Source: Alphaproteobacteria bacterium (GTDB lineage Bacteria > Pseudomonadota > Alphaproteobacteria > UBA7887). From it: a stretch of 64,000 bases of DNA. Both the position numbers and the translations under genes were made by a program. Below, piece by piece: positions 3,035-63,576 of this stretch (the first letter of the stretch is position 1; each line of letters begins with the position of its first letter). The notes beneath the pieces were generated by a model. The model was not told the DNA's origin, did no database searches, and saw only the letters and a program-made list of their open reading frames with translations. The stretch covers positions 643 to 64,642 of the forward strand of contig JAKZSU010000012.1 in the NCBI GenBank assembly GCA_047517485.1, in the 5' to 3' direction.

Positions 3035-5130
3035 GCCGATTGCGCGATCTCACGGCCCTCTTGCAGCCGCGTTCCGTCGCCATTATCGGCGCGACACCGG
3101 ACGTGCGTCGCCCGGGCGGGCGGCCTCTCGATTTTCTCCGCCGCTACGGCTTCGCCGGGCCGATCTACCCGGTCAATCCGCGTTACGACGATATCGACGG
3201 CGTGCGGTGCTATGCCAAGATCACCGATCTGCCCGAGCCCGCCGACATGGCGGTGGTCGTGGTCCCGGCGCCGGCGGTGTTGCAAACCCTGCGCGATTGT
3301 CAGACCGCCGGGGTCAAGGCGCTCACCATCTACACCTCGGGCTTTCGCGAGACCGGCGCGGAGGGCGCGGCGATGGAAGCCGAGCTCATCGAAGTGGCGA
3401 ACCAAGCCGGGACGCTGATCTGCGGGCCCAATTGCCAGGGGGTCGCCAATTTTCACGATTCGATGATCGCCAATTTCACCTCGGCGCTGGCGACCGAGGG
3501 AATCGACGCCGGGCCGATCGGCTTCGTCAGCCAGAGCGGCCTGTTCACCGGTATCGTCACTGCTGAGCTGCGCCGCCGCGGCCTCGGTCTCGGCTATCTA
3601 ATCAGCAGCGGCAACGAATCCGTGGTCGATTTCGCCGACGTGCTCGCCTTCATGGCCGAGGATCCGCGCATCAAGGTGGTCGCGGGCTATATGGAAGGCA
3701 TCCGCGACGGCGCCAAACTGCGCGCGGCGGCGGCGGTCGCGCGGCGCAACGGCAAGCCGATGATCCTGCTCAAGGTCGGGCGCTCGCCGGAAAGCGCGGC
3801 CGCGGCCGCCTCGCACACCGGGGCGATGGCGGGCGCCTACGAGGTCTATCAGGCGGCGCTCGCACAATGGGGCTTGATCGAGGTCGACTCGATCCGCGAG
3901 CTGTTCGACGCCATCGAGGCGTTCGCGGTGACCAGCGGCATCGCGCGCGGCGACAAGGCCGGCATTCTGACCAATTCCGGCGGCCTCGGTGTGTTCGGCG
4001 CCGACCAGGTTCGGTCCCAAGGTTTGGCGATGGCAACCTTCAGCGAAACAACCGTCGCCACCATCCAAGACCGCCTGCCGCAATTCGGCTCGGCGCGCAA
4101 CCCGATCGATTTCACCTTGCAGGCGTTTACCGATCCGCAGGCGGTGGGCGCGCACCTCAGACACATGATCACCGACGACGACGTCGATATCGGGCTGGTG
4201 TTCTTTGGCGTGCAATTGCTCAACGTCGATGCTCTGGTCAAGGAGATCACCGACGCCGACGCACTAAACGAAAAACCGATCCTGGTGTCGTGGATGCTCG
4301 GGGAGGCGAGCGCGCCACGGCGCCTCCGCGATGCCGGCATCCCCTGTTACGACGACCCCGAGTCGGCGATCAAGGCGGCGCGGCGGTTGGTCGAGCATGG
4401 CCGTCTCGCGGCGCACGCGGATGCCGCGCGCACACCATCGGCAATGGACGGGGTTGCGCAAAGGTTACCCGGCGCCGGGACGCTCTCAGAATGGCAAGCG
4501 CGCGCGGTTCTGCGGGTTGCCGGGATCGACACGGTGTGGGGCGCGCTCGCGGCCACCGTGGATGAGGCGGCCGCCGCGGCCGCTGCCATCGACGGGCCGG
4601 TGGTCCTCAAAATCGAATCCGCCGATATTGCCCATAAAAGCGAGGCGGGAGGTGTCGCCCTCGGGCTCGACGACGAAACCGCCGTACGAGAAGCATATGA
4701 GCAGGTGACCACGAGCGCGCGGGCTTATGCGCCGGACGCCGATATTACCGGGGTCGGTGTCTATGAGATGATCTCCGGCGCCGTCGAACTCATCGTCGGG
4801 ATCAGCCGCGACACTGCGTTCGGGCCGGTGATCCTGGTCGGCATGGGCGGGATCATGGCCGAAGTCATGGACGATTCCGCGCTCGGCGTGGCGCCACTCG
4901 ACCGCCCCCGCGCCGCGGCCATGCTCGCCTCGCTCAAGGGTTTTCCCATGCTCGACGGCGCGCGCGGCCGGCCCAAATGCGACACCGCCGCGGTGGTCGA
5001 TATTTTGCTGGCTTTGTCGGATCTAGCGCTCGCGTGTCCGAGCATCGGCGAACTCGATATCAACCCGCTGATGGTTATGCCGGTGGGCGAGGGGGCCAAG
5101 GCGGCGGACGCGCTGATTACCGTCAGCTAA
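3031..5130 (+). CDS. acyl-CoA synthetase (NDP/ADP-forming), fused CoA-binding + ATP-grasp subunits
   Basis: N-terminal CoA-binding domain (VAIIGATPD...YPVNPRYD...VPAPAV) followed by succinyl-CoA-synthetase-like and ATP-grasp regions. The GTG at 3031 overlaps the upstream stop; the track ORF 2869 is extended upstream and overlaps. Confidence 0.75.
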   Translation: MSRLRDLTALLQPRSVAIIGATPDVRRPGGRPLDFLRRYGFAGPIYPVNPRYDDIDGVRCYAKITDLPEPADMAVVVVPAPAVLQTLRDCQTAGVKALTIYTSGFRETGAEGAAMEAELIEVANQAGTLICGPNCQGVANFHDSMIANFTSALATEGIDAGPIGFVSQSGLFTGIVTAELRRRGLGLGYLISSGNESVVDFADVLAFMAEDPRIKVVAGYMEGIRDGAKLRAAAAVARRNGKPMILLKVGRSPESAAAAASHTGAMAGAYEVYQAALAQWGLIEVDSIRELFDAIEAFAVTSGIARGDKAGILTNSGGLGVFGADQVRSQGLAMATFSETTVATIQDRLPQFGSARNPIDFTLQAFTDPQAVGAHLRHMITDDDVDIGLVFFGVQLLNVDALVKEITDADALNEKPILVSWMLGEASAPRRLRDAGIPCYDDPESAIKAARRLVEHGRLAAHADAARTPSAMDGVAQRLPGAGTLSEWQARAVLRVAGIDTVWGALAATVDEAAAAAAAIDGPVVLKIESADIAHKSEAGGVALGLDDETAVREAYEQVTTSARAYAPDADITGVGVYEMISGAVELIVGISRDTAFGPVILVGMGGIMAEVMDDSALGVAPLDRPRAAAMLASLKGFPMLDGARGRPKCDTAAVVDILLALSDLALACPSIGELDINPLMVMPVGEGAKAADALITVS

Positions 5131-5185
5131 AATAAATTCGCCGTCCGCCAAGGAAACGCCTTAATCGTGCGTCTTACTAGACAGC

Positions 5186-5737
5186 ATGCTGACGATGACC
5201 GACGACGAAACGCTCGCTCAGCGAGCCGGGACCGGAGATAGGGAGGCGTTCGAGACGCTTCTCGAGCGCCACTACGACCGGGTCTATCGCATTGGCCACC
5301 GCTTGCTCGGAAACCCGACCGAGGCCGAGGATCTCGCTCAGGACATCTGTGTCGGCCTGGTCAAGAAACTGCGGTCCTATCGCGGCGACAGCCGTTTCAC
5401 CACCTGGCTCTATCGTGTCACCGTCAATGCCGCGCGCGACGTGCTGCGCCGCCGTGCGACATCGAACCGCCTCGACCGGTCGTTCAGCGATACCGCGGCG
5501 CTGGTCAAGGCGGGTGACGAAGCCCGGCGGTCCGAGGCGCGCTGGCTCTACGACGCCCTGCAGGCGCTCGGCGAGGATCTGCGCGAAACCGCGCTGCTGG
5601 TGCTGTCCGAGGAACTCAAACATGCCGAGGCGGGGGAAATATTGGGCGTGAAGGAGGCCACCGTCTCGTGGCGCATGCATGAAGTGCGAAAGCAGCTGAA
5701 AGCGCTGGCCGAGGCCGGCGATGGTGTCACGACATGA
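5186..5737 (+). CDS. ECF (sigma-70 family group IV) RNA polymerase sigma factor
   Basis: Region-2 and region-4 signatures (DLAQDICVGLV..., TTWLYRVTVNAARD, ...LSEELKHAEAGEILGVKEATVSWRMHEVRKQL). Confidence 0.85.
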   Translation: MLTMTDDETLAQRAGTGDREAFETLLERHYDRVYRIGHRLLGNPTEAEDLAQDICVGLVKKLRSYRGDSRFTTWLYRVTVNAARDVLRRRATSNRLDRSFSDTAALVKAGDEARRSEARWLYDALQALGEDLRETALLVLSEELKHAEAGEILGVKEATVSWRMHEVRKQLKALAEAGDGVTT

Positions 5738-7899
5738 CCGATGAATTCGACGATCTAAAAATGACCTTGGCCGAGGACGCGCCGTCCTCGAATCCCGTGG
5801 CGCGCAAAGCCGCGATCAAGGCCGGACTGGTCGCGTTCGACGCGGAATTTTCCGCCGCCGCCCAAGGATCGCCGTCCCGAGAACGTCAAAGGGGAAGATT
5901 TTCATCAATCCTCCAAACCCTATTCGGGAGACGTTCCATGACCCTCACGCAACCCCGTTTTCGCTATGTCCTCGCCGGCGGCGCCAGCGTCGCCGTCCTC
6001 GCCCTGGTGGTCTTCGGCAGCAACTTGCCGCGCCAGTTTTCGCAAGAAATTTCATTGCAAAAAGTAGCCGACGACCGCTTGGCGGGCGACTACGACGAAG
6101 GCAAAGTCGTTGCGACGACGAGTCAGTTGAAGAGCGAAGTCGATGCCATTCTTGGCGGGCAGGAGGTGCGTCGCGAATTGGCGGTTCCGCTAACGGATTC
6201 AGAATCATTACCTAGATCGCGCAACAAGTCGGCGCAATTGCCACAATCCGTATCCGAACCGGAGGTTATGACTTGGCATGCACCCAGTGCCGATCAAACT
6301 GCCAAGTCGACTGAGGCCAACCGCGGAATCGCGCAAGAATCCTTTGCCGATTTGTCGGCCGACACCGGCGGGGTTGCCAGCGCGCCGGCGATCATGATGG
6401 AGCGTGCCGACGTGCAGGCCCGCATTGCCGACGCGCCCGCGAAGGCGCAGTACGAGGACCAAGGCCGCGATCGCTTTGCCGATATCGAGGCCAATCCGGT
6501 GAACGTGGTCGCCGAGCAACCGGTATCGACCTTCTCGATCGATGTCGACACCGCGTCCTATGCCTTCATGCGTGGCTCGCTGAACCAAGGCGTTTTGCCG
6601 CAGAAGGACGCGGTGCGTATCGAGGAGCTGATCAATTATTTCGACTACGACTACGCGCTGCCCGACGACCGCGAGGCGCCGTTCCGCGCCCACGTCTCGG
6701 TCATGCCGACGCCGTGGAACGACGAGACCCAGCTGATGAGCATCGGCATCAAGGGCTATGACCTCGACGCGGCGGAGAAACCGCACGCGAACCTGGTGTT
6801 CCTGATCGACACTTCGGGCTCGATGAACCATGAAAAAAAGCTGCCGTTGTTGATCAACTCTTTCAAACTGTTGCTCGACAGCCTCGACGCGGACGATACG
6901 GTGGCGATCGTCACGTATGCCGGCAGCGCGGGCACCGCGCTCGAGCCGACTAAAGTTTCTGAACGGGCGAAAATTCTCGCCAGTCTCGAACGCTTGCGAT
7001 CCGGCGGCTCGACCGCCGGCGCCGAGGGCATCCGCCAAGCCTATCTGTTGGCCGAGCAAAACCTCGTCGAGGACGGGGTGAACCGGGTGATCCTGGCCAC
7101 TGACGGCGATTTCAATGTCGGCATCACCGATCAGGAAGAACTCAAGAGCTACATCGAGCGCAAGCGCGAAACCGGGATCTCGCTCTCGGTCCTCGGCTTC
7201 GGCCGCGGCAACTACAACGACGAGCTGATGCAGATCCTCGCCCAGAACGGCAACGGCAACGCCGCCTATATCGACAACCTGTCGGAAGCACGAAAAGTAC
7301 TGGTCGAGGAAGCGACCTCGACTTTGTTCACCATCGCCAAGGACGTCAAGATCCAGATCGAGTTCAACCCGGCGACGGTCTCGGAGTATCGCCTGATCGG
7401 CTATGAGACCCGCATGCTCGCGCGCGAGGATTTCAACAATGACAAGATCGACGCCGGCGACATCGGCGCCGGGCATACGGTCACCGCGTTGTATGAATTG
7501 ACCCCGGTGGGTACCGGCGCCGAACGCATCGACTCGCTGCGCTATCAACCCTCCGCGGACGTGGAAGGAGAGGCGGCTTCGAGCGAGATGGCGTTCCTCA
7601 AGATTCGCTACAAACTGCCCGACAGCGACACCAGCACGTTAATCACCCAGGCGATCACCGAGGATAACGTCTCGAACGACGTGTCGTCGGCGCCCCGCGA
7701 GGCCCGCTTCGCCGCCGCCGTCGCCGGTTTTGGCCAGCTCTTGCGCGGCGGCCGCCATACCGGCGACTATGGCTATGACCATGTGATCGCCTTGGCGCAG
7801 GGCGCCAAGGGTGACGATGATTTCGGCTACCGGTCGGAATTCATCAGCTTGGTCCGCCTGGCGAAATCCGCCGCCGATTTGGAAGCGCTCCGTCGCTAA
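5734..7899 (+). CDS. membrane anti-sigma-like protein with periplasmic von Willebrand A (vWA) + DUF3520-like domains (YfbK-like)
   Basis: 4-bp ATGA overlap with the sigma gene. One TM helix (YVLAGGASVAVLALVVFG) follows a short cytoplasmic N-terminus. MIDAS motif DTSGSM and a vWA fold. Confidence 0.75.
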   Translation: MTDEFDDLKMTLAEDAPSSNPVARKAAIKAGLVAFDAEFSAAAQGSPSRERQRGRFSSILQTLFGRRSMTLTQPRFRYVLAGGASVAVLALVVFGSNLPRQFSQEISLQKVADDRLAGDYDEGKVVATTSQLKSEVDAILGGQEVRRELAVPLTDSESLPRSRNKSAQLPQSVSEPEVMTWHAPSADQTAKSTEANRGIAQESFADLSADTGGVASAPAIMMERADVQARIADAPAKAQYEDQGRDRFADIEANPVNVVAEQPVSTFSIDVDTASYAFMRGSLNQGVLPQKDAVRIEELINYFDYDYALPDDREAPFRAHVSVMPTPWNDETQLMSIGIKGYDLDAAEKPHANLVFLIDTSGSMNHEKKLPLLINSFKLLLDSLDADDTVAIVTYAGSAGTALEPTKVSERAKILASLERLRSGGSTAGAEGIRQAYLLAEQNLVEDGVNRVILATDGDFNVGITDQEELKSYIERKRETGISLSVLGFGRGNYNDELMQILAQNGNGNAAYIDNLSEARKVLVEEATSTLFTIAKDVKIQIEFNPATVSEYRLIGYETRMLAREDFNNDKIDAGDIGAGHTVTALYELTPVGTGAERIDSLRYQPSADVEGEAASSEMAFLKIRYKLPDSDTSTLITQAITEDNVSNDVSSAPREARFAAAVAGFGQLLRGGRHTGDYGYDHVIALAQGAKGDDDFGYRSEFISLVRLAKSAADLEALRR

Positions 7900-7905
7900 G
7901 ACCTT

Positions 7906-8667
7906 CTACTTCGATCCGCGCCGCTCCAGGAATTTGGCCATGATCTTATGTGGCTCGCCGCTTTCATAGGCGGCACGCTGGAGCGGCGCGGCCGCGACGA
8001 ACGCATCGTCGAACGCCGCTTGCGTCATCTGTCTCAGCCGTATCTTGGTCAATCGAAAGGCGTTCACCGGCTGCTCGGCGAGCGCCTTCGCTTCTGCAAT
8101 CGCGACATCCCGAACCTCCTCCTCGGGCACGATCCGGCTCAGTAAACCGAGCCTCTGCGCTTCCTCGGACTCGACCAGACGCCCCGTCAGCGCCAGGTCT
8201 CGGGTTTGCAGATGGCCCAATGTCAGCGCCATCAGTTGCACGCCGATAACGCTCGCCAAGCCGACATTGATCTCGGGTTGGCCGAGACGCACCCCGGCAT
8301 GGCCGATTCGCGCATCGCACAGCAGGGCGACTTGAAATCCGGCGCCGGCGGCAAGCCCGTTCACCGCCGCGACGCACGGTTTGTCGAGGTCGCGAATGGC
8401 GGTGAGAAAGTGCCGCAAATCGTCGACCCACGCGACCGCCTCGTCGGCGCTGAACGCGGCGGTCTCGGCGAGGTCGTTGCCGGCGCAAAACGCCTTGTTT
8501 CCCGCGCCGGTGATCACGACGCCGCGCAGGTCTTCGCGTCGATTGACCGGCGCTAGCGCCTCGACCACCTCCGCCCGCATCGCCGCATGCAGGGCATTGC
8601 GCACCGCTGGTCGGGCGAAGGTCACGATAAGAAATCCGTCCGCGGTTCGGGTTTCGATAAATTCCAT
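7906..8667 (-). CDS. enoyl-CoA hydratase/isomerase (crotonase family)
   Basis: Crotonase fold motifs (AFCAGNDL, AAVNGLAAGAGFQVALLCD). Confidence 0.85.
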   Translation of the reverse strand: MEFIETRTADGFLIVTFARPAVRNALHAAMRAEVVEALAPVNRREDLRGVVITGAGNKAFCAGNDLAETAAFSADEAVAWVDDLRHFLTAIRDLDKPCVAAVNGLAAGAGFQVALLCDARIGHAGVRLGQPEINVGLASVIGVQLMALTLGHLQTRDLALTGRLVESEEAQRLGLLSRIVPEEEVRDVAIAEAKALAEQPVNAFRLTKIRLRQMTQAAFDDAFVAAAPLQRAAYESGEPHKIMAKFLERRGSK

Positions 8668-8724: not shown

Positions 8725-9567
8725 ATGGTTGCAAAATCAGACATGGTGCGGATCGCGCGTTGGGCGGGCTTTGCCGCTACTCTGGTCTGCCAGCAGACCG
8801 CGACGGCGGTCGCCGACAACGAAGCGGCCGAGGTCGCCTACGATCGCGGCGACTATGACAGCGCGATGGTCCAATGGTTGGCCGAAGCCGATCGCGGTGA
8901 TGCCACGGCGCAATACAATGTCGCCACGCTGCTCCGGCTGGGCCGCGGCGGCGCGCCAAATCCCAAGGCCTCGGCGGTCTGGTACCGCGCCGCCGCCGAG
9001 CAAGGCCATTTGGCGGCGCAGACCAATCTCGGGCGGCTGTATCTCGCCGGCGCCGGCCTCAAGCGCGACCCGGCGCGGGCGATGAAGTGGTTCGCGGCGG
9101 CGGCGGAGAAACATTATCCGCCGGCGGAGTATTATTTGGCGGAGCTGTTTCGCACCGGCGAGGGGGTGTTGTGGGATCCCGAGCGCGCGCTCGAGCTTTA
9201 TCTCTCGGCGGCGGAACAGGGTCTCACCCAAGCCGCCTTCAGACTGTCGCGGATGTATCGCACCGGCGACGGGGTACCGCGCAATTTCCGCGCCTCGCGC
9301 GAGTGGACGGTGCGCGCCGCGGTCGGCGGGCACGCGGAGGCGCAATACCATCTCGCGGCGCTTTATTTCCGCGGCGAAGGACATAAGGCGGACCCGGTAC
9401 GCGCGCTGATCTGGTATCACCACGCGGATCGTGGCGGCTATGTCGGTGCCGCGCAAATGCGCGATGCGATTGCACAATCGCTCACCCCCCAACAACGCGC
9501 CGAAATCGACGACATCGCCAAAAAGATCGAGCGCGCATTGACCCGTGCCACCGTCGCCGAGCCATGA
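8725..9567 (+). CDS. Sel1-repeat (TPR-like) secreted protein
   Basis: Signal-peptide-like N-terminus (MVAKSDMVRIARWAGFAATLVCQQTATAVA) and about six Sel1 repeats (AQYNLG/AEYYLAELF/AQYHLAALYFRGEG). Start chosen at an internal ATG. Confidence 0.75.
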   Translation: MVAKSDMVRIARWAGFAATLVCQQTATAVADNEAAEVAYDRGDYDSAMVQWLAEADRGDATAQYNVATLLRLGRGGAPNPKASAVWYRAAAEQGHLAAQTNLGRLYLAGAGLKRDPARAMKWFAAAAEKHYPPAEYYLAELFRTGEGVLWDPERALELYLSAAEQGLTQAAFRLSRMYRTGDGVPRNFRASREWTVRAAVGGHAEAQYHLAALYFRGEGHKADPVRALIWYHHADRGGYVGAAQMRDAIAQSLTPQQRAEIDDIAKKIERALTRATVAEP

Positions 9568-9615
9568 CTCTTGGTATATGCTCGCGCCGTGGAGACGAGA
9601 TCTAAGGGAGCGGGC

Positions 9616-10299
9616 GTGGATTTCATTTTTATGCTCACCCGAGCGGACAAAACGGTTGCGGATTGCGTGAGCGTAATCGACCAGGTTTTGCCGCTCGGCG
9701 TGATGCATATCGGGTTTAAGGACATCGGCGTCGACCGGGCGACGCTGATCACCGCCAATGACGCGATCAAGGGCGCGGGGGCGACGAGTTACATGGAGGT
9801 CGTCAGCACCGGCGCGGCGGACTCCTTGGACTCGGCGCGCATCGCCCGCGATATCGGGGTCGATTGCTTGCTCGGCGGCACCGAAGTCGCGGCGACCCTC
9901 GACATTCTTGACGGCAGCGGGATCGGCTATTACCCGTTCGCCGGCCGGCCGCGCGGCCATCCGACGGTGCTCGACGGCACCGCGGCAGACATCGCCGCCC
10001 AGTGTCGAAGCTTCGAGGCGGCGGGCTGCGCTGGGGTCAATTTGCTGGCTTATCGCGCCACCGAGGACGACCCCATCGCGCTGATACGCGCCGCGCGCGG
10101 CGCCATTGACGGCGTCGTGATCGTCGCCGGCAGCGTCGATTCGCCACAGCGAATCCAGGCGGTCGCGGCGGCCGGCGCCGACGCTTTCACAATTGGTACG
10201 GCGGTATTCGACGCAACCTTCGCGCCGCAAAGCGACACTTTGGCCGATCAGGTACGGGCGATCATCGACGCTTGCGCCGCCACGGAGCCGGTGAATTAG
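9616..10299 (+). CDS. hypothetical protein (possible TIM-barrel fold)
   Basis: Coding-like ORF with no family recognised by eye. GTG at 9616 is preceded by an AAGGGAG RBS; the alternative ATG is at 9571. Convergent with the threonine dehydratase gene. Confidence 0.4.
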   Translation: MDFIFMLTRADKTVADCVSVIDQVLPLGVMHIGFKDIGVDRATLITANDAIKGAGATSYMEVVSTGAADSLDSARIARDIGVDCLLGGTEVAATLDILDGSGIGYYPFAGRPRGHPTVLDGTAADIAAQCRSFEAAGCAGVNLLAYRATEDDPIALIRAARGAIDGVVIVAGSVDSPQRIQAVAAAGADAFTIGTAVFDATFAPQSDTLADQVRAIIDACAATEPVN

Positions 10300-11279
10300 C
10301 CGTCGGACAAGGCCCGGATGAACATGTCGGGCGCGATGTTGCCGCCCGAGACGATCACCAATACGGTTTTTTTCCGGCAGTCGAAGTGGCCGCACAACAC
10401 CGCCGCCAGGGCGACCGCGCCGCCTGGCTCGACCACCACCCGCAAATTTCGGTACGCCCAGGCGACGGCGTTCAAGGCTTCGTCGTCGGTGACCACGACG
10501 CCGTCCGACAGCAGGCGCCGGTTCAGGGCGAAGGTGAGCGCCCCGGGTTCCGGCGCGAGCAGCGCGTCACAGATCGATCGCGCGTCGGGGGCATTGCCGA
10601 CCCGCTGCCCGGCGCCGAGCGATCGCGCGGTGTCGTCAAAACCGGCCGGCTCCACCGGGTGGATGCTGATACCGGGACAATGATTCTCTAGCGCCAAGGC
10701 GCTGCCCGCGATTAAGCCGCCACCGCCGCACGGCGACAGGGCATGGTCGGGGGTCAAGCCCAGCGCGGCCGCTTGCGCCGCCGCTTCGAGGCCGACGGTG
10801 CCTTGGCCGGCAATGATCCTGGCATCGTCATAGGGCGGGACGATCGTCGCGCCGCGCTCGCGGGCGATCGCCGTGCCGATCGCTTCGCGGCTCTCGGTGT
10901 AGCGGTCGTAAAAGACGATCTCGGCGCCGAGCGCCCGGGTGTTGTCGATTTTAGGCACCGGCGCGTCCGACGGCATGACGATGGTCGCTGGCGCGCCGAC
11001 CAACGCTGCCGCGGCCGCCACCCCTTGGGCGTGGTTGCCCGACGACCAGGCGAGGACGCCGCGCGCGATTTCACCCTCGTCGAGCCGGCAAATCCGATTG
11101 AAAGCGCCGCGAAACTTAAACGTGCCGGTGCGTTGCAGGGCTTCGACCTTGAGCAAAATTCGCCCGCCCGATACCTCGTCCAAGGCATCGGAGCGCAGCA
11201 GCGGGGTGAGTACGGCGTGGCCGCGAATCCGCCGCGCGGCATCGACAATGTCGTCTATGGTCGGGAGTCCGTCGTCCAT
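10296..11279 (-). CDS. threonine/serine dehydratase (PLP-dependent, fold type II)
   Basis: PLP-lysine motif TGTFKFRGA, glycine-rich loop, ~327 aa. Confidence 0.85.
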   Translation of the reverse strand: MDDGLPTIDDIVDAARRIRGHAVLTPLLRSDALDEVSGGRILLKVEALQRTGTFKFRGAFNRICRLDEGEIARGVLAWSSGNHAQGVAAAAALVGAPATIVMPSDAPVPKIDNTRALGAEIVFYDRYTESREAIGTAIARERGATIVPPYDDARIIAGQGTVGLEAAAQAAALGLTPDHALSPCGGGGLIAGSALALENHCPGISIHPVEPAGFDDTARSLGAGQRVGNAPDARSICDALLAPEPGALTFALNRRLLSDGVVVTDDEALNAVAWAYRNLRVVVEPGGAVALAAVLCGHFDCRKKTVLVIVSGGNIAPDMFIRALSDG

Positions 11280-54955: not shown

Positions 54956-56377
54956 TCAACCGATTGTGCGAGCTGGTTTTAGCATGAACGCGGGCACATG
55001 GTCTCCCATGCCGATCACGCGGCCTTTGTCTTTTGCCGGATCGGGTTGGCGCTTGCCTTGCCGATTTGGCCTGGCGTCGGACTTAGGCGGCTCGGTCTTA
55101 GGCGGCTCGGCCTTTGGCGCCTCGGCCTTGGCGGGTTCTGCCTTCGCCGGACCGACATTTTGTTTGGCCTTGGCCACCGCGATTTTGGGCTTGGCCGCGG
55201 TTCGCCGCGTGCGTCCCCGGGTCGGGGCGGCCTCGACGGTCTCGAGTGCCGCGGAGGCGAAGCTTTCTATCTCGATTTTGGGAATATCATGACCGATAAG
55301 CGCATTGATCGCGGAAACATACTTCGCGTCGGCTGGCGTGGCGATGGTGAACGCCCGGCCGGGGCGCCCCGCGCGGCCGGTTCGGCCGATGCGATGAACA
55401 TAGTCCTCGGCGTGCATCGGCACGTCGAAATTGAAGACGTGGCTGAGCCCCTGGATATCGAGCCCACGGCCGGCGACATCGGTCGCCACCAACACGGTCA
55501 CCTTGCCATCCTTGAACGCCTGCAAGGTCTCGGTTCGCGCCGGCTGCGACATATCGCCATGCAGTGCGGCGCTCGACAGGCCGTGTTTGCGCAGCGATTT
55601 GTCGAGGATGTCGACATCTTTTTTACGATTGCAGAATACCAAGGCATTCTCGACCGCCTCGCTTTTAATCAGCGACCGCAAGGCTTCCTGCTTCTTCCTG
55701 CTATCGACCACGGTGACCGCCTGGGTAACCGTGTCCGCTGTCGAGGCCGGCGGCGCGACGGCGATCTCCTTTGGCGAGCTGAGAAACTTGTCGGCCAGCC
55801 GCTTGATTTCCTTCGGCATGGTCGCCGAGAACATCAAGGTCTGTCGGATCGGCGATACCAGGCCGACGATGCGCTCGACATCGGGAATGAACCCCATATC
55901 GAGCATGCGATCGGACTCGTCGATAACCAGGATTTTGACCCCGGTCAACAGGATGTTACCGCGATCGAAAAGGTCGAGCATACGGCCCGGCGTGGCGATC
56001 AGCACATCGACGCCGCGATCGAGCAAGCGCCGCTGATCGACCATCGAGACACCGCCGATCAAAAGCGCCTTGGTGAGCTTGTGATATTTGCCGTAGGTTT
56101 CGAAATTATTGGCGATCTGGGTCGCCAGCTCTCGCGTCGGCGTAAGGATCAACGATCGCGGCATGCGCGCCCGCGCCCGCCCGGAGCTGAGAATTTCGAT
56201 CATCGGCAAAGTGAAGGACGCCGTCTTGCCGGTGCCGGTCTGGGCGCAACCAAGTACGTCGCGCCCCTGGAGCACGATCGGAATGGCTTGGCTTTGAATC
56301 GGGGTGGGCTCTCGGTATCCGGCGTCCGAGACAGCGCGCAGTGTATCGGAGCCTAGCCCCAGCGTATCAAAACTCAT
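54956..56377 (-). CDS. DEAD-box ATP-dependent RNA helicase (RhlE-like) with basic Lys/Ala/Pro-rich C-terminal tail
   Basis: Motifs I AQTGTGKT, Ia PTRELA, TPGR, II variant DESD, SAT, VI HRIGRTGRAG. The tail repeats AKAEPAKAEAPKAEPPK. Confidence 0.9.
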   Translation of the reverse strand: MSFDTLGLGSDTLRAVSDAGYREPTPIQSQAIPIVLQGRDVLGCAQTGTGKTASFTLPMIEILSSGRARARMPRSLILTPTRELATQIANNFETYGKYHKLTKALLIGGVSMVDQRRLLDRGVDVLIATPGRMLDLFDRGNILLTGVKILVIDESDRMLDMGFIPDVERIVGLVSPIRQTLMFSATMPKEIKRLADKFLSSPKEIAVAPPASTADTVTQAVTVVDSRKKQEALRSLIKSEAVENALVFCNRKKDVDILDKSLRKHGLSSAALHGDMSQPARTETLQAFKDGKVTVLVATDVAGRGLDIQGLSHVFNFDVPMHAEDYVHRIGRTGRAGRPGRAFTIATPADAKYVSAINALIGHDIPKIEIESFASAALETVEAAPTRGRTRRTAAKPKIAVAKAKQNVGPAKAEPAKAEAPKAEPPKTEPPKSDARPNRQGKRQPDPAKDKGRVIGMGDHVPAFMLKPARTIG

Positions 56378-56605
56378 GCAGTAGATATTGCCTGTATGTT
56401 GTCGGCGCCACGAAAAATTGAGAATTTACTTCGAGAAAAAAGGAAATACGTCGCAAGGCGGGAATATCGTTATAAAAGCGCAGAAAATCAACAAAGAAAC
56501 GAGTAAATCGAAACAAAAGAGCCTTTTTTTATGTCCAAATTACGACTTGGTGGCGAATGGTCACACTTTCTGGACACCCAAGGCGCGAACTAAATAAGGA
56601 AATCC
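56378..56605. promoter_or_regulatory. AT-rich divergent promoter / long 5'-leader region between the DEAD-box helicase and the alpha/beta hydrolase
   Basis: About 228 bp, markedly lower in GC than its surroundings (runs such as gaaaaaattgagaatttacttcgagaaaaaagg). Confidence 0.4.
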
Positions 56606-57304
56606 ATGGCGAATAAATTGATCCTTTGTCCAGGACTATTGTGCGATCCGGCACTTTGGCGCGCCCAAATCGATGGGCTGCAAGACTGTACGACCCTTCA
56701 TGTTGCCGATTTTACCACTGACGACTCGATCACTGCGATGGCCGAACGCGTTTTAGACGCGGCGCCGGATACATTTGCGCTGGCCGGACTGTCGATGGGT
56801 GGCTACGTCGCGCAAGAAATTGTCCGCCAGGCACCGGAACGAGTCAGCCGCTTGGCCTTGCTCGATACATCCGCCCGCGTTGACTCCGAAACCGTATCGC
56901 GTCGGCGACAAGATTTTATCGCGCTCGCCGGTCGTGGACGATTCCGCGGCGTAACACCGAAGCTGATGCCATTGCTGATCCACCCCGAACGCCTCGACGA
57001 CGCGGCTTTGACCGATGATATCCAGGCGATGGCCGAACGCGTCGGCGGCGATGCCTTCCTCCGCCAGCAAAAGGTAATTCAGGCGCGGGTCGATGGGCGT
57101 GAGGATCTTCGACGCATTAGGTGTCCGACATTGGTTCTCTGCGGGCGGGAGGACCAGTTGACGCCGCTTGATGCGCACATCGAAATGGCGGAGAACATCC
57201 CCGGCGCCGACTTGGTGGTCTTGGGGCGGTGCGGCCATATGTCAACCATGGAGCGGCCCGGCGATGTGACGGCGGCGCTAAGAAACTGGCTGCTGAGGAC
57301 CTAG
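56606..57304 (+). CDS. alpha/beta-fold hydrolase
   Basis: GLSMGG nucleophile elbow and a C-terminal GHM(S) motif; 232 aa. Confidence 0.8.
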   Translation: MANKLILCPGLLCDPALWRAQIDGLQDCTTLHVADFTTDDSITAMAERVLDAAPDTFALAGLSMGGYVAQEIVRQAPERVSRLALLDTSARVDSETVSRRRQDFIALAGRGRFRGVTPKLMPLLIHPERLDDAALTDDIQAMAERVGGDAFLRQQKVIQARVDGREDLRRIRCPTLVLCGREDQLTPLDAHIEMAENIPGADLVVLGRCGHMSTMERPGDVTAALRNWLLRT

Positions 57305-57315
57305 ATAATTTGGCT

Positions 57316-57846
57316 CTAGGGTGTCGGAGGACCGCGGTACAATCGCTCCGCCATTTGCTCGATGAGGCTGAGAAAGGTCGGATCATCGGGGCTGTCGACG
57401 TCTCCGACTGTGCCTTCCACGCGGGTTAACGCGGCGCCGCCGTGGCACACCGCCATGCGTACCTTGACCGTCCCGGGCGCCGCCGGGACGAGTTCCACGG
57501 GCTTAATGTCGAGACATTCGTATGCGGTTGGTCGTACCGCCGCGTCGAAGACCACTGAAAAATACGGCTCGTCCGGCACCACGCTGTCACTGTGTACCAG
57601 CAATGTCCGCTTGGCGCGGCGGCTCATCGATTCGGCGACCGCGGCGTCCACCGCCGACTGGGTCGAGTCGAACGGGTTTCCCCACACCAGGATTTGGAAG
57701 GGTTCGTCGGAGTGCCAATCGATCAGTTCGGGCCAGCGATCATGGTATTGCACATGGTTGTATACGATCGGAAGGCCGGCGCATCCCTGTGCCAAAATCC
57801 CAAACAGCGCGGCAACGATACCGGTTTGCCACGCGCCGAGGGTCAT
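57316..57846 (-). CDS. lipoprotein of unknown function, paralog A
   Basis: Lipobox-like ILAQGCAG. Shares VYNxxQYHDRWP, WGNPF and a Cys-containing C-terminal block with the next two genes. Confidence 0.5.
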   Translation of the reverse strand: MTLGAWQTGIVAALFGILAQGCAGLPIVYNHVQYHDRWPELIDWHSDEPFQILVWGNPFDSTQSAVDAAVAESMSRRAKRTLLVHSDSVVPDEPYFSVVFDAAVRPTAYECLDIKPVELVPAAPGTVKVRMAVCHGGAALTRVEGTVGDVDSPDDPTFLSLIEQMAERLYRGPPTP

Positions 57847-58427
57847 GATGGATCCGCGCCCTCGGTGCCGCTTGGATTGTGACCGGGCCGCACTTCAAAC
57901 ACTTTTATGGCGACTTGATATACCTGCTCGCGAAAACGCTCGTCATCTGGTCCGGTGACGCCGCTTACCCGCCCCTGCGCGCGGGTGAGGGCGGTGTCGC
58001 CGCGGCACAGCGCGGCATGAAGTTCGATGTTGCCGGTCGACCGCACGGGGGTGGCGGTGGCAAGGTCGCCGCAGGGCGCGCCGCCGGGTGATTTTGCCGG
58101 ATTAATCATGATGGCTAGACGGGGTGCGAGCGGGTCCGGATTGCCGGGTTCGGTTGAAAAACGATACCCGGGTCGGTTAAAGGCGATGGTGACCGCATCG
58201 AGGACGACCGCCACGGTTTCGCTTTTCTGTCCCGCAAACGGGTCGCCCCAGATTACCGCGAGATACTCCTGGCCTGGCGCGCCGGAAAAGAAATCCGGCC
58301 AGCGATCATGATAGACTTGGGCATTGTAAACCGTCGGCGCGCGCGCGTTGCACGCAGCGAGTAGCGCCGCGATCGCGGTAACGAAAAGCAGCGGAAACGA
58401 CCGTTTTCGACGTGCTGTGCTCATGAC
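57843..58427 (-). CDS. lipoprotein of unknown function, paralog B
   Basis: Signal plus lipobox (LLFVTAIAALLAAC). Motifs VYNAQVYHDRWP, IWGDPFAG, ALCRGDTALTRAQGRV. 4-bp overlap with paralog A. Confidence 0.55.
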   Translation of the reverse strand, partial: VMSTARRKRSFPLLFVTAIAALLAACNARAPTVYNAQVYHDRWPDFFSGAPGQEYLAVIWGDPFAGQKSETVAVVLDAVTIAFNRPGYRFSTEPGNPDPLAPRLAIMINPAKSPGGAPCGDLATATPVRSTGNIELHAALCRGDTALTRAQGRVSGVTGPDDERFREQVYQVAIKVFEVRPGHNPSGTEGADPS

Positions 58428-58524
58428 CAACGACCTCTGATTTGAACCGCCAAGGACAGGCCAAATCAAATCACAGCCGATGCACATTCGCCGGGCACAA
58501 CCCCGTGAGCAGCGCCGCCGGATA

Positions 58525-59058
58525 CTATGGCGCGTTCATCGGTCCCGCCTCGAACATCCTCAAGGCCATGTCGCGAATGAGCAGAACGAAGTCGCGATCC
58601 CCGGCGCCGCCGCTGCGCGGAATTCGGCCTTCGATGCTGACCAGGGGTGCGGTGCCGAAACAGAAAGCCATCATGGCGCGTACCGTCTTACTGCTCGGTG
58701 CCCACGGCATTCGGCCCGGTGCACGGCACAGCACCGCCGGTTTGGTGCCCACTGGCGGGTCGAAGGCGACGACCATGATCATGTTTCTCCGGACATTTTC
58801 GGTCGGTCGGGTGACAAAAGTGACGGAGGTGTTCGCAAAGGCGCTTTGTAGCCCGGCGCCGACGATATTGGCCAAGGTCTCGGGCGCCACGCCGAAGGGA
58901 TTGCCGGAAATGTGGGTGGCGATGTTCGACCCGGTTTGGCCGTCGGCATAGAGGTACCCGGAGGGGTCCGAGCGATGGGTGATCAGATTATAAATCCGCT
59001 CACCACCAACCGCGCATCCGGCGACCAACAGAAACGCGATCATGATCCTGTACCGCAT
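58525..59058 (-). CDS. lipoprotein of unknown function, paralog C
   Basis: Lipobox LLVAGCA. Motifs ISGNPFGV and AFCFGTAPLVSIEGRI, related to paralogs A and B. Confidence 0.5.
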   Translation of the reverse strand: MRYRIMIAFLLVAGCAVGGERIYNLITHRSDPSGYLYADGQTGSNIATHISGNPFGVAPETLANIVGAGLQSAFANTSVTFVTRPTENVRRNMIMVVAFDPPVGTKPAVLCRAPGRMPWAPSSKTVRAMMAFCFGTAPLVSIEGRIPRSGGAGDRDFVLLIRDMALRMFEAGPMNAP

Positions 59059-59075
59059 ATCGTGTGCCAACATAT

Positions 59076-61049
59076 TCAAATATCGAGCTCGTCGACATCG
59101 CCGCCATGTTCACGGATGAATTGCATGCGTTTTTCCGGATTGCGGCCCATCAAGTCCTCGACCCGTCGCGCCGTCGGTATTTCGCTGTCGGCGTCGATCC
59201 GGACCTGGAGCGAGGTCCGGGTCGCGTGCGCCATGGTGGTGGTTTTGAGCTGCGCCGGCGGCATTTCGCCAAGCCCCTTGAAGCGGCTGACATCGACTTT
59301 CGCATTGGCCTTGAATTCGGATTTGAGCAACTGTTCGAGGTCGGCGTCGTCGCGGGCGTAAATGGTCCGGGCACCGTGAGTGAGACGGTACAACGGCGGT
59401 TGCGCGATATAGAGATGCCCGCCGCGGATCAAATCCGGCATTTCGCGATAGAAAAATGTCATCAGCAGAGCCGCGATGTGGGCGCCGTCGACATCGGCAT
59501 CGGTCATGATGATAACGCGCTCGTAGCGCAATCTGTCTTCGCGATAGTGGCTGCCGGTGCCGCAGCCCAAAGCCTGGATCAGATCGCCGAGTTCCTTATT
59601 GCCCCGCAATTTGTCGGCCGTCGCCGATGCGACGTTGAGAATTTTGCCGCGCAGGGCGAGCACCGCCTGGTTTTCCCGCACTCGCGCTTGTTTCGCCGAC
59701 CCGCCGGCGGAATCGCCCTCGACCAAGAAGACTTCCGTGTCCTTCGCGTCACGCCGGGTACAATCGGCAAGCTTACCGGGCAGGCGCAATTTCCGGGTCG
59801 CGGACTGGCGCGCGACTTCGCGGTCCTGGCGTCGCCGCAAGCGCTCGTCCACCCGTTCCAGCACGTGGCTCAGAAGATCGTTCGCCGCGTCCGGGTCGTT
59901 TGCCAACCAGTGATCGAAATGATCCTTCAGCGTGGTTTCGACGAGGCGGGTGGCTTCGACGGTGGCGAGGCGGTCCTTGGTTTGCCCCTGAAACTGTGGA
60001 TCGTGGATGAAGACCGACAACAGGCCGCACGCGTCGGCCAGGAGATCATCCGCCGTTATCTGGCTCGCCCGCTTGTTCTTGGCGAGCTCTCCGTAACCGC
60101 GCAGGCCCTTGGTTAGCGCGCCGCGCAGGCCGGTCTCGTGAGTCCCGCCGTTTCGCGTCGGCACCGTATTGCAATAGGAATTGAGAAACGGGTCTCCGGC
60201 CCCCGATAGCCAGGTGATCGCCCATTCGACGCGGCCCGCGCCGCCGGTCAGCTTGGCCTCGCCGGTAAACGGCGTCGCGGTGACAGTGTCCGCCTTGTCC
60301 ACCGACGAGGCGAGAAAATCGACCAATCCGCCAGGGAAATGCAGCACCGCTTGGGCCGGCGTTTGGTCGTTTTCCCCGATCAGCGATGGGTCGCACAGCC
60401 AACGAATTTCAACGCCGCGGAACAAGTACGCTTTCGATCGCGCCATGCGGTGGAGGCTGGCCGGGCGGAACCGCGCGGCTTCGGGAAAAATCGTCCGGTC
60501 GGGCAGAAATCGGACCATCGTACCGCGCCGATTGTGCACCGGACCGGCATCCTCGAGCGCGCTTTTCGGCGCGCCGCGACGATAGGTCTGGCGCCACAGG
60601 CGGCGGTCGCGCGCGACTTCGACCGTAAGGCTTTCCGCCAGCGCGTTGACCACCGAGACACCCACGCCGTGCAACCCGCCGGACGTCTGGTACGATTTGC
60701 CGGAGAATTTTCCCCCCGAATGCAGCGTTGTCATAATCACTTCAAGCGCCGATTTCTTGCGAAATTTTGGGTGCGGGTCGATCGGGATGCCGCGCCCATT
60801 GTCGCGCACCGTGATCGCGCCGTCCGCATCGAGCTCGAGATCGATGAACGTCGCGTGTCCCGAGACCGCTTCGTCCATCGCGTTGTCGAGCAGTTCGGCG
60901 ACGAGATGATGCATCGCGGTCTCGTCGGTGCCGCCGATATACATGCTGGGGCGTCGGCGCACTGGTTCGAGGCCTTCGAGGACCTCGATATCCTTGGCGG
61001 TATAGTCGTCGGAAGCGGTCTCTGTCGCCGCTTGAAAAAGGTCGGGCAT
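59076..61049 (-). CDS. parE: DNA topoisomerase IV subunit B
   Basis: GHKL ATPase domain (VLEGLEPVRRRPSMYIGGTD, ELLDNAMDE) and TOPRIM. The ~657-aa length favours ParE over GyrB. Start taken at MPDLF. Confidence 0.85.
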   Translation of the reverse strand: MPDLFQAATETASDDYTAKDIEVLEGLEPVRRRPSMYIGGTDETAMHHLVAELLDNAMDEAVSGHATFIDLELDADGAITVRDNGRGIPIDPHPKFRKKSALEVIMTTLHSGGKFSGKSYQTSGGLHGVGVSVVNALAESLTVEVARDRRLWRQTYRRGAPKSALEDAGPVHNRRGTMVRFLPDRTIFPEAARFRPASLHRMARSKAYLFRGVEIRWLCDPSLIGENDQTPAQAVLHFPGGLVDFLASSVDKADTVTATPFTGEAKLTGGAGRVEWAITWLSGAGDPFLNSYCNTVPTRNGGTHETGLRGALTKGLRGYGELAKNKRASQITADDLLADACGLLSVFIHDPQFQGQTKDRLATVEATRLVETTLKDHFDHWLANDPDAANDLLSHVLERVDERLRRRQDREVARQSATRKLRLPGKLADCTRRDAKDTEVFLVEGDSAGGSAKQARVRENQAVLALRGKILNVASATADKLRGNKELGDLIQALGCGTGSHYREDRLRYERVIIMTDADVDGAHIAALLMTFFYREMPDLIRGGHLYIAQPPLYRLTHGARTIYARDDADLEQLLKSEFKANAKVDVSRFKGLGEMPPAQLKTTTMAHATRTSLQVRIDADSEIPTARRVEDLMGRNPEKRMQFIREHGGDVDELDI

Positions 61050-61240
61050 GGGTCTCGAACTGTGTTTTGCGGTCGTGCGGCGATCCGCCGCGCGATCAAT
61101 CATATGGTAGTCGGTGGCGTCTTGGAAACAACATCTTGTGCCGAATCCCTATGATGATCGGAAATCGACGCAAATTCGCCGGGATCGTTCTTAACGAGAT
61201 TGGTGGCCCGGCCCGGTTGACTATACTTGGCGATGGTTGG

Positions 61241-61304: not shown

Positions 61305-62720
61305 CTAGACCGAATAATACATGTCGAACTCGATCGGATGCGGCGCTTGCTCGAAACGGATCAGCTCTTCTCGCTTGAGATCGAGATAGGCCGCGATCTG
61401 CTCCCCGGTGAACACGTCGCCGGCGGTGAGAAAATCATTGTCGTCTTCCAGGGCGCCGATCGCTTCGCCGAGCGATCCGCACACCACCGGCACGCCCTCG
61501 AGCTCTTCCGGCGGCAAATCGTAGAGATCCTTGTCGATCGCCTCGCCCGGGTCGATGCGGTTCTGGATGCCGTCGAGGCCGGCCATCATCATCGCCGAGA
61601 ACGCGAGATAGGGGTTTGCCGCCGTATCCGGGAAGCGGACTTCGACGCGCTTGGCCTTCGGGCTCGCGCCATAGGGAATACGGCATGCCGCCGAGCGGTT
61701 GCGCGCCGAATAGGCGAGCAGCACCGGCGCCTCGAAGCCCATGACCAGGCGTTTGTAGCTGTTGGTCGTAGGGTTGGTGAAGGCGTTCAAGGCGCGCGCA
61801 TGTTTGATGATGCCGCCGATGTAATGCAGCGCCGAGTCGGACAAGTCGGCATACCCGGTGCCGGCGAACAGCGGCGAGCCGTCCTTCCAGATCGATTGAT
61901 GCACATGCATGCCGGAGCCATTGTCGTCGAACACCGGCTTGGGCATGAAAGTCGCGGTCTTGCCGTAGGAGTGCGCGACCTGGTGCACGCAATACTTATA
62001 GATCTGCACCATGTCGGCGCAATCGACCAGCGGCGCGAAAGCGAAGCCGAGTTCGTTCTGACTCGGCGCGACTTCATGATGGTGCTTCTCCATCGCCAAG
62101 CCCATTTCGAGCATCGCACTGACCATCTCGGCGCGCAGGTCCTGCATCGAGTCGACGGGGGCGACCGGAAAATAGCCGCCCTTGGGACCCGGGCGGTGAC
62201 CGATATTGCCGCCTTCCATCTCGGCCCCGGAATTGTACGGGCCTTCCTCGGAATCGATGCTGTACATCGTCTCGTTTTGCGACACTTTCCAGCGCACGTC
62301 GTCGAACACGAAGAACTCGGGCTCGGGCCCGAAATAGGCGGTGTCGCCAATGCCGCAGGACTTCAAATAGGTTTCCGCCTTGACCGCGGTCGAGCGCGGG
62401 TCGCGCGAATAGGGCTGACCGGTCAACGGTTCCAGCACGTCGCACACCAGGATTAAGGTCGGTTGCGCGGTGAACGGATCCATCACCGCGCTTGCCAGGT
62501 CGGGCTTGAGGTTCATGTCGGACTCGTTGATCGCCTTCCAGCCGGCGATCGAGGAGCCGTCGAACATGATCCCGTCCTCGAGCAAGTCCTCGTCGACGGA
62601 TTCCGTGGTCTGCGCGGTATGCTGCCATTTGCCGCGCGGGTCGGTGAAACGGAAGTCGACATACGCGACCTCGTTGTCCTTCATCATTTCGAGGACTGTC
62701 TTGGCATCGGACATGGTCAA
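61305..62720 (-). CDS. glnA: glutamine synthetase type I
   Basis: GSI signatures throughout (FDGSSI, ...GPEPEFF..., NGSGMHVH, adenylylation-site region NPY). 471 aa. Confidence 0.95.

Positions 62721-62917: not shown

Positions 62918-63576
<659 letters not shown>

Follow-up and report, generated by a model that had tools for sequence, protein, structure and literature searches.

A tandem lipoprotein triplet beside parE in an alphaproteobacterial genome: lineage-specific expansion of an uncurated family with a predicted PelC-like fold

Why does an alphaproteobacterial genome carry three lipoprotein genes in a row beside parE, and what may their products do? We investigated this question in a stretch of 64,000 nucleotides (nt) from the Alphaproteobacteria bacterium assembly GCA_047517485.1 (contig JAKZSU010000012.1, positions 643 to 64,642), called the window below. 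An earlier account made from the letters alone, the sequence-only reading, had described three consecutive minus-strand genes of 176-214 amino acids between an alpha/beta hydrolase gene and parE. The three minus-strand open reading frames (ORFs), here A, B and C, do exist between these two neighbours. Genes, strand and coordinates were as described, and only the length of B had to be corrected, from 214 to 193 amino acids. The genes concerned are the following.

57316-57846, minus strand: lipoprotein A, 176 amino acids as given in the ORF list; youngest clade
57843-58424, minus strand: lipoprotein B, 193 amino acids; preferred start ATG at 58424 (MSTARRKR...)
58425-58524, minus strand: spacer between C and B, 100 nt, carrying the AGAGG ribosome-binding site of B
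58525-59079, minus strand: lipoprotein C, the ancestral-type copy, 184 amino acids from a TTG at 59079
59076-61103, minus strand: parE (DNA topoisomerase IV subunit B), TIGR01055 parE_Gneg, 751 bits against a cut-off of 723

By our analysis, the locus as a whole is best explained by a lineage-specific expansion of lipoproteins that would lie against the membrane, have a predicted PelC-like fold and may form an oligomeric, non-enzymatic scaffold. We hold this explanation with moderate confidence. Its parts are supported to different degrees, and they are taken in turn.

The three proteins were compared with BLASTP. The E-value was 8e-24 for A and B (29% identity over 164 amino acids), 7e-9 for A and C, and 2e-8 for B and C, and the pairwise identities among the three were 25-30%. 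Such likeness is far beyond chance, and by these alignments A, B and C are true paralogs, as the sequence-only reading had proposed. It had also assigned to each protein a lipoprotein-type signal, and a lipobox was found in all three. Its list of shared blocks needs one change: the G-N/D-P-F block and the C-terminal Cys-containing block occur in all three proteins, and YHDRWP occurs only in A and B. The positions of these elements are as follows.

57781-57795, minus strand: lipobox of A, LAQGC, with Cys22
58350-58364, minus strand: lipobox of B, LLAAC, with Cys25
59014-59028, minus strand: lipobox of C, LVAGC, with Cys22 as the predicted lipidated residue
57670-57681, minus strand: GNPF of A
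58236-58247, minus strand: GDPF of B
58894-58905, minus strand: G-N-P-F family motif in C
58660-58728, minus strand: segment of C between the near-invariant Cys118 and Cys140, both kept in 99-100% of the family

The corresponding Cys pair is Cys111 and Cys134 in A, and Cys118 and Cys140 in B. The residues at +2 after the lipobox Cys are Ala, Asn and Ala in the three paralogs (Ala in C), and none is Asp. The signal peptide of A (57781-57846) is atypical, with an n-region, MTLGAWQTG, that contains no Lys or Arg and a Gln at lipobox position -2; an ortholog of A, P0009 (MTRSG..., LLLVGC), has a canonical signal peptide.

Curated libraries gave no name to these proteins. Pfam-A, NCBIfam and PADLOC returned no match for A, B, C or their relatives (147 relatives in the case of Pfam), and profile searches of PDB sequences with three alignments (E ≤ 10) matched only signal-peptide regions, such as the N-termini of BamE and PqiC, all at E > 0.04. 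This accords with the sequence-only reading, which recognised no characterised family. A word-indexed protein search found 18 proteins and suggested an orphan family, and this was ruled out by an exhaustive HMMER search with a 13-sequence profile. Among 1.84 billion cluster representatives, the latter search found 1272 proteins with E ≤ 1e-3, of which 632 had E ≤ 1e-10; the counts are clusters at 50% identity. The best 150 hits listed were nearly all 175-205 amino acids long, with a typical size of about 185.

We calculated a family signature over 174 full-length members. The lipobox Cys was kept in 97% of them, and 162 of the 174 matched a PROSITE-style lipobox pattern. A G-N-P-F motif (G 97%, N 76%, P 96%, F 95%) follows, the median distance from the lipobox Cys to GxPF being 34 residues (5-95% range, 32-38). 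Two further Cys were kept in 99-100% of members, and a GP-DP-F block was also found (Asp 87%, Phe 91%). Asp at +2 is rare in the family. A, B and C carry every one of these elements, namely the lipobox Cys, G-x-P-F about 34 residues on, the two Cys and the GP-DP-F block, and they score 1e-43 to 1e-56 against the hidden Markov model (HMM) of the family. In 41 of 162 members, about a quarter, the C-terminus bears a further Cys pair (such as ...CGGGPDC or ...CFMPDC); P0031, P0050 and the Azospirillum brasilense protein (L019 6908-7465) are among them. This pair suggests a second disulfide, and the A, B and C clades, whose members in the window lack it, would have lost it.

The named members come from Azospirillum species, Dongiaceae, Geminicoccaceae, unclassified Alphaproteobacteria metagenome-assembled genomes and one Methylobacterium entry, and they are annotated as "hypothetical protein" or "Lipoprotein". 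In A. thermophilum, a plasmid carries a second copy (WP_109333644.1, L018), which follows a major facilitator superfamily (MFS) transporter gene. Judged by these searches, the family is widespread, uncurated and normally single-copy in the same chromosomal slot, and the triplet is no isolated oddity. In our view the family has not been described before, although its structural kind is known. The result defines a sizeable lipoprotein family outside the curated libraries, with at least 1272 clusters at 50% identity and no Pfam or NCBIfam model. The family can be recognised by its signature, is predicted to fold like PelC and has a conserved position next to parE.

How one copy became three was explored by surveying copy number and gene order in related loci. 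The family HMM found exactly three copies in the window. Five loci (L002-L006) also carry three, in the order parE-C-B-A, together with the convergent hydrolase, the DEAD-box helicase and an AsnC-type regulator, and their parE is 89% identical to that of the window. The more distant L020 also has three copies arranged in this way; they are 66% (C), 50% (B) and 59% (A) identical to their counterparts in the window. Two copies, a C and a B/A-like one, are present in L007/L008. A single C-type copy lies directly after parE in L009 and L010, and one copy occupies the same slot in L017 and in the cultured Azospirillum brasilense Sp7 (L019). In the last, the order is parE (4723-6783), lipoprotein (6908-7465), hydrolase on the opposite strand (7484-8188) and DEAD-box helicase (8952-10607). 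A. brasilense Sp7, whose lone copy (NZ_CP012915.1, 864661-865218) sits in this slot, is a tractable cultured organism.

Three lineages share the order C-B-A, and each paralog has a 1:1 ortholog there. The identities were 49-74% for the C orthologs P0011, P0013 and P0015, 50-66% for the B orthologs in L020 and L002, and 59-73% for the A orthologs (P0007, P0009, L020 and L002). In a neighbour-joining tree, the C clade stands apart from a clade of B and A, in which A is sister to B. The tree and the copy-number survey together therefore indicate that the copies went from one (C type) to two (C and the B/A ancestor) and then to three (C, B and A). On this comparative evidence, the triplet arose in this lineage by tandem expansion of one gene whose ancestral place was just downstream of parE. 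A stepwise expansion from one to two to three, with each copy retained, offers a clean setting in which to study subfunctionalisation of envelope lipoproteins.

An independent tandem array of two copies was found in L022 (3903-5049), in the same slot without parE. Each of the two shares about 27% identity with A, B and C, and the two genes overlap by 35 nt. The hydrolase and DEAD-box helicase genes adjoin the array, and an LTXXQ (Spy/CpxP-like) gene lies upstream in place of parE. The hydrolase neighbour recurs in L002, L017, L020, L022 and A. brasilense L019.

To describe the proteins themselves, structures were predicted with AlphaFold2. The model of A had a predicted local distance difference test score (pLDDT) of 78.8 and a predicted template modelling score (pTM) of 0.76, and the model of C had values of 85.0 and 0.81. 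Both models show a compact domain of about 150 residues with the order beta-beta-alpha-beta-beta-beta-beta-alpha, and its first predicted beta-strand starts 4-6 residues after the lipidated Cys. The near-invariant G-N-P-F stretch is a loop of this domain, which also contains the two near-invariant cysteines. In a Foldseek search, PelC chains were the sole significant matches (E 1.4e-4 to 5e-3), the next matches having E ≥ 0.09. The predicted fold is thus closest to PelC, which is a resemblance of models and not demonstrated homology.

PelC (PDB 5T0Z, 5T10, 5T11 and 9H80) is the outer-membrane lipoprotein in PelBC, the complex that exports the Pel exopolysaccharide. It forms a dodecameric ring under the PelB barrel, and its functional residues are the D-loop Asp-119 and the membrane-inserting Trp-149 (PMC12141448). 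The family differs in having its own G-N-P-F motif and conserved Cys pair. In their likely mode of action, the proteins come closest to PelC-type small outer-membrane lipoproteins. Of the features that define PelC, the fold was found in the predicted models; neither a sequence match nor a pel operon with a PelB porin was detected. PqiC, TraT, CsgG and LptE share the fold as well, but each is encoded beside its machine (pqiAB, tra, csg and lptD, respectively), whereas the family has no such conserved partner gene. The N-terminal domain of TolB is a further structure for comparison; TolB carries a beta-propeller, whereas the family proteins are single-domain.

It is also conceivable, though unlikely, that A, B and C belong to the DUF4136 lipoproteins (PF13590; BT2437, PDB 4F54), from which they would have diverged strongly, and are not PelC relatives. 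UniRef names two family members, P0242 (A. thermophilum) and P0272 (A. ramasamyi), "DUF4136 domain-containing protein". However, the current PF13590 model gave no match at E ≤ 10 in these two proteins and none at E ≤ 1 in 147 members, and the possible structural similarity of the family to DUF4136 was weaker than that to PelC. For DUF4136, no report of a characterised function was found in the literature.

For the explanation that we favour, a membrane-apposed lipoprotein with a PelC-like fold, the following steps may be proposed. Once lipidated, A, B and C would go to the outer membrane and reside in its inner leaflet, because none has Asp at +2 and Asp is rare there in the family. The two conserved Cys probably form a periplasmic disulfide. 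The domain would then rest flat on the membrane and serve as a scaffold or cap that has no enzymatic activity. A non-enzymatic role is suggested by the conserved residues: apart from one well-conserved Asp and an Asn that is kept less often, these are Gly, Pro, Phe and Cys, and no conserved catalytic-type constellation was found in the family. By analogy with the 12-mer of PelC, the 8-mer of PqiC and the 10-mer of TraT, the protein probably works as an oligomer. PqiC is an octameric toroid, and its authors noted a tendency towards ring formation among its structural homologues (PMC10897342). In genomes that co-translate three subfunctionalised paralogs, the oligomer may be mixed. The isoelectric points (pI) of the mature proteins (A 4.7, B 5.6 and C 9.35) differ in a way that would suit mixed assembly, which is weak evidence.

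Several points weigh against this explanation. The AlphaFold2 alignments were shallow, with 13 and 28 sequences. The likeness to PelC is at the fold level only, with 7-13% identity and TM-scores of 0.36-0.56, and PelC was not retrieved by the profile searches of PDB sequences (E ≤ 10). No pel, beta-barrel or other export genes lie beside the approximately 20 loci examined, and no TPR-porin (tetratricopeptide repeat), glycosyltransferase or deacetylase gene occurs in any of them, so the pel-operon context of PelC was not encountered. The sorting rule based on Asp at +2 is a rule of E. coli. C and A differ in charge, but their orthologs do not keep this difference, the pI of C-type proteins being 6.3-9.4. 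Finally, a mixed oligomer cannot be how the family works in general, because most genomes have one copy.

Another possibility, which we regard as quite improbable, is that the proteins are monomeric adaptor or regulator lipoproteins, like LpoB, which activates a peptidoglycan synthase, and that each paralog has a different periplasmic partner. However, LpoB spans the distance to its inner-membrane partner with a long disordered linker. The C-terminal domain of LpoB follows such a flexible linker, whereas the family has a single domain close to the membrane, with a tether of just 4-6 residues from the lipidated Cys to the domain. The structural similarity is also weaker than to PelC.

A stronger form of the scaffold proposal is that A, B and C together build a PelC-like ring of mixed composition at the outer membrane, on its periplasmic face. 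The ring would cap or gate a partner, and the conserved start/stop overlaps would tie its synthesis stoichiometrically to topoisomerase IV subunit B. We consider this specific form very unlikely. If it were true, the locus would encode an envelope module not described before in Rhodospirillales-like Alphaproteobacteria, and PelC would gain its first heteromeric relative.

Selection on the three genes was estimated from the divergence between the window and L002, which has the orthologous triplet. The ratios of nonsynonymous to synonymous substitution rates (dN/dS) were 0.15 for C, 0.23 for B and 0.12 for A, and those of six neighbouring housekeeping genes were 0.03-0.12; because dS is about 1, these values are approximate. 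By these ratios, the selection on A, B and C is purifying, with slightly relaxed constraint. The sequence-only reading had regarded the triplication as typical of surface or periplasmic proteins under diversifying selection. On such a view, surface-exposed or periplasmic proteins were triplicated and then driven apart, for example as antigenic or phage-receptor variants. The paralogs are indeed just 25-30% identical, and the lipoproteins evolve somewhat faster than their neighbours (68-74% against 82-92% amino-acid identity between window and L002). However, the dN/dS values argue against gene-wide diversifying selection. In addition, the A, B and C clades are old, with 1:1 orthologs in fixed order in three lineages, and no DNA-level repeat signature of recent duplication exists; a DNA-repeat search detected just the short stretch coding YHDRWP. 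The claim is therefore not supported at the level of whole genes, and diversifying selection is hardly credible as the cause of the triplet.

The arrangement of starts and stops was then considered. The overlap between A and B that the sequence-only reading reported, and its suitability for translational coupling, were confirmed, and a second overlap was found. The relevant sites are the following.

57843-57846, minus strand: overlap of B stop and A start, ATGA, 4 nt, read from the sequence
59076-59079, minus strand: overlap of parE stop and C start, TTGA, 4 nt, absent from the earlier account
61128-61099, minus strand: promoter-like site before parE
61280-61249, minus strand: strong intrinsic-terminator-like hairpin after glnA, with 13 pairs, 10 of them G-C, and then a T-run

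The overlap of B and A is TTGA in L002, and in L020 the two genes are separated by 185 nt. The overlap of the parE stop with a C-type start is ATGA in L020 (914-917), L007 (3793-3796) and L002 (about 7309-7312), and TGATG in L009 (7953); it is thus seen in five lineages including the window. This conservation supports the TTG start of C and points to a conserved translational coupling of the C-type gene to parE. From parE to the end of A, the C-B spacer included, the minus strand showed no terminator-like site. It is probable that parE-C-B-A form one transcription unit with parE first. The hairpin after glnA separates glnA from the parE-lipoprotein unit.

A functional link of the lipoproteins to topoisomerase IV, chromosome segregation or the cell cycle has a next to negligible probability: the parE overlap (ATGA, TTGA or TGATG) recurs across five lineages and the adjacency reaches Azospirillum brasilense, but an exported lipoprotein cannot contact topoisomerase IV, the syntenic block comprises parE, lipoprotein, hydrolase and DEAD-box helicase together and fits simple inheritance, distant members are located elsewhere, and L022 keeps the slot without parE.

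The contexts of the distant members are unrelated to this slot, the genes lying next to LPG_synthase_TM/Sua5, DUF3618 or an MFS transporter. In L012 (4827-5822), L014 (4720-5700) and L021 (4053-5231), an LPG_synthase_TM (PF03706) gene is divergent from a distant single-copy member, and in the same three loci, on distinct contigs, a Sua5/YrdC gene is convergent with the family member. The LPG_synthase_TM neighbourhood may hint at a link to membrane-lipid modification. In the two GTDB metagenome-assembled genomes L009 (8498-9535) and L010 (9496-10395), genes for an Opp-type ATP-binding cassette (ABC) permease and ATPase follow the single C-type copy, and in L009 the start of the permease ORF overlaps the lipoprotein stop by 4 nt. 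Among the approximately 20 neighbourhoods, no conserved functional partner gene was found; the Opp-like permease link is confined to L009/L010 and the LPG_synthase_TM link to L012/L014/L021. A defence-system role was considered and rejected, PADLOC being negative and the context housekeeping. The value of these results lies mainly in annotation and hypothesis generation; they address no long-standing open question, and function is inferred.

The gene models deserve some detail. The maximal ORF of B is 57843-58487 (214 amino acids), and its real start is almost certainly the ATG at 58424, because an AGAGG Shine-Dalgarno sequence lies about 10 nt upstream and independent gene calls in other assemblies (P0001/P0203) give 193 amino acids. 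In-frame alternative ATGs of C are present at 59073 and 59058. A gene artefact or pseudogene was rejected on the basis of purifying selection and conserved orthologs. Several public assemblies of the same species hold truncated or frameshifted versions of A, B or C (P0014, P0016, P0017, P0197/P0201 and P0205-P0209); for example, A is split into 123 and 39 amino acids on one 494-kb contig. These versions are probably long-read assembly errors, and pseudogenisation in some strains is possible.

The remaining neighbours of the unit in the window are listed here.

54956-56377, minus strand: DEAD-box RNA helicase
56606-57304, plus strand: alpha/beta hydrolase, Pfam Abhydrolase_1/6, convergent, the downstream edge of the conserved slot
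61305-62720: glnA, on the upstream side of parE

The Abhydrolase_1/6 and TIGR01055 matches agree with the placement of the triplet between hydrolase and parE in the sequence-only reading. Its remark that the triplet lies away from other envelope genes also holds, as no envelope or export genes were found within about 10 kb. The hydrolase gene is not part of the lipoprotein system.

A 15-nt tandem repeat of 3.9 copies (55077-55134) lies in the C-terminal tail of the DEAD-box helicase and encodes a low-complexity AKAEP/PKxEP repeat. The G+C content of the hydrolase-helicase intergenic region (56378-56605) is about 0.49, compared with 0.62. In a near-identical strain (ENA ERZ28763718), an IS1595-family transposase is inserted in the hydrolase-helicase interval (L025 11395-12363). 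Insertion sequence (IS) elements (DDE_Tnp_1 and rve) also lie upstream of glnB in L024 and L025. The sole Rfam or ARAGORN match within the window is a tRNA-His (GTG) at 63500-63576.

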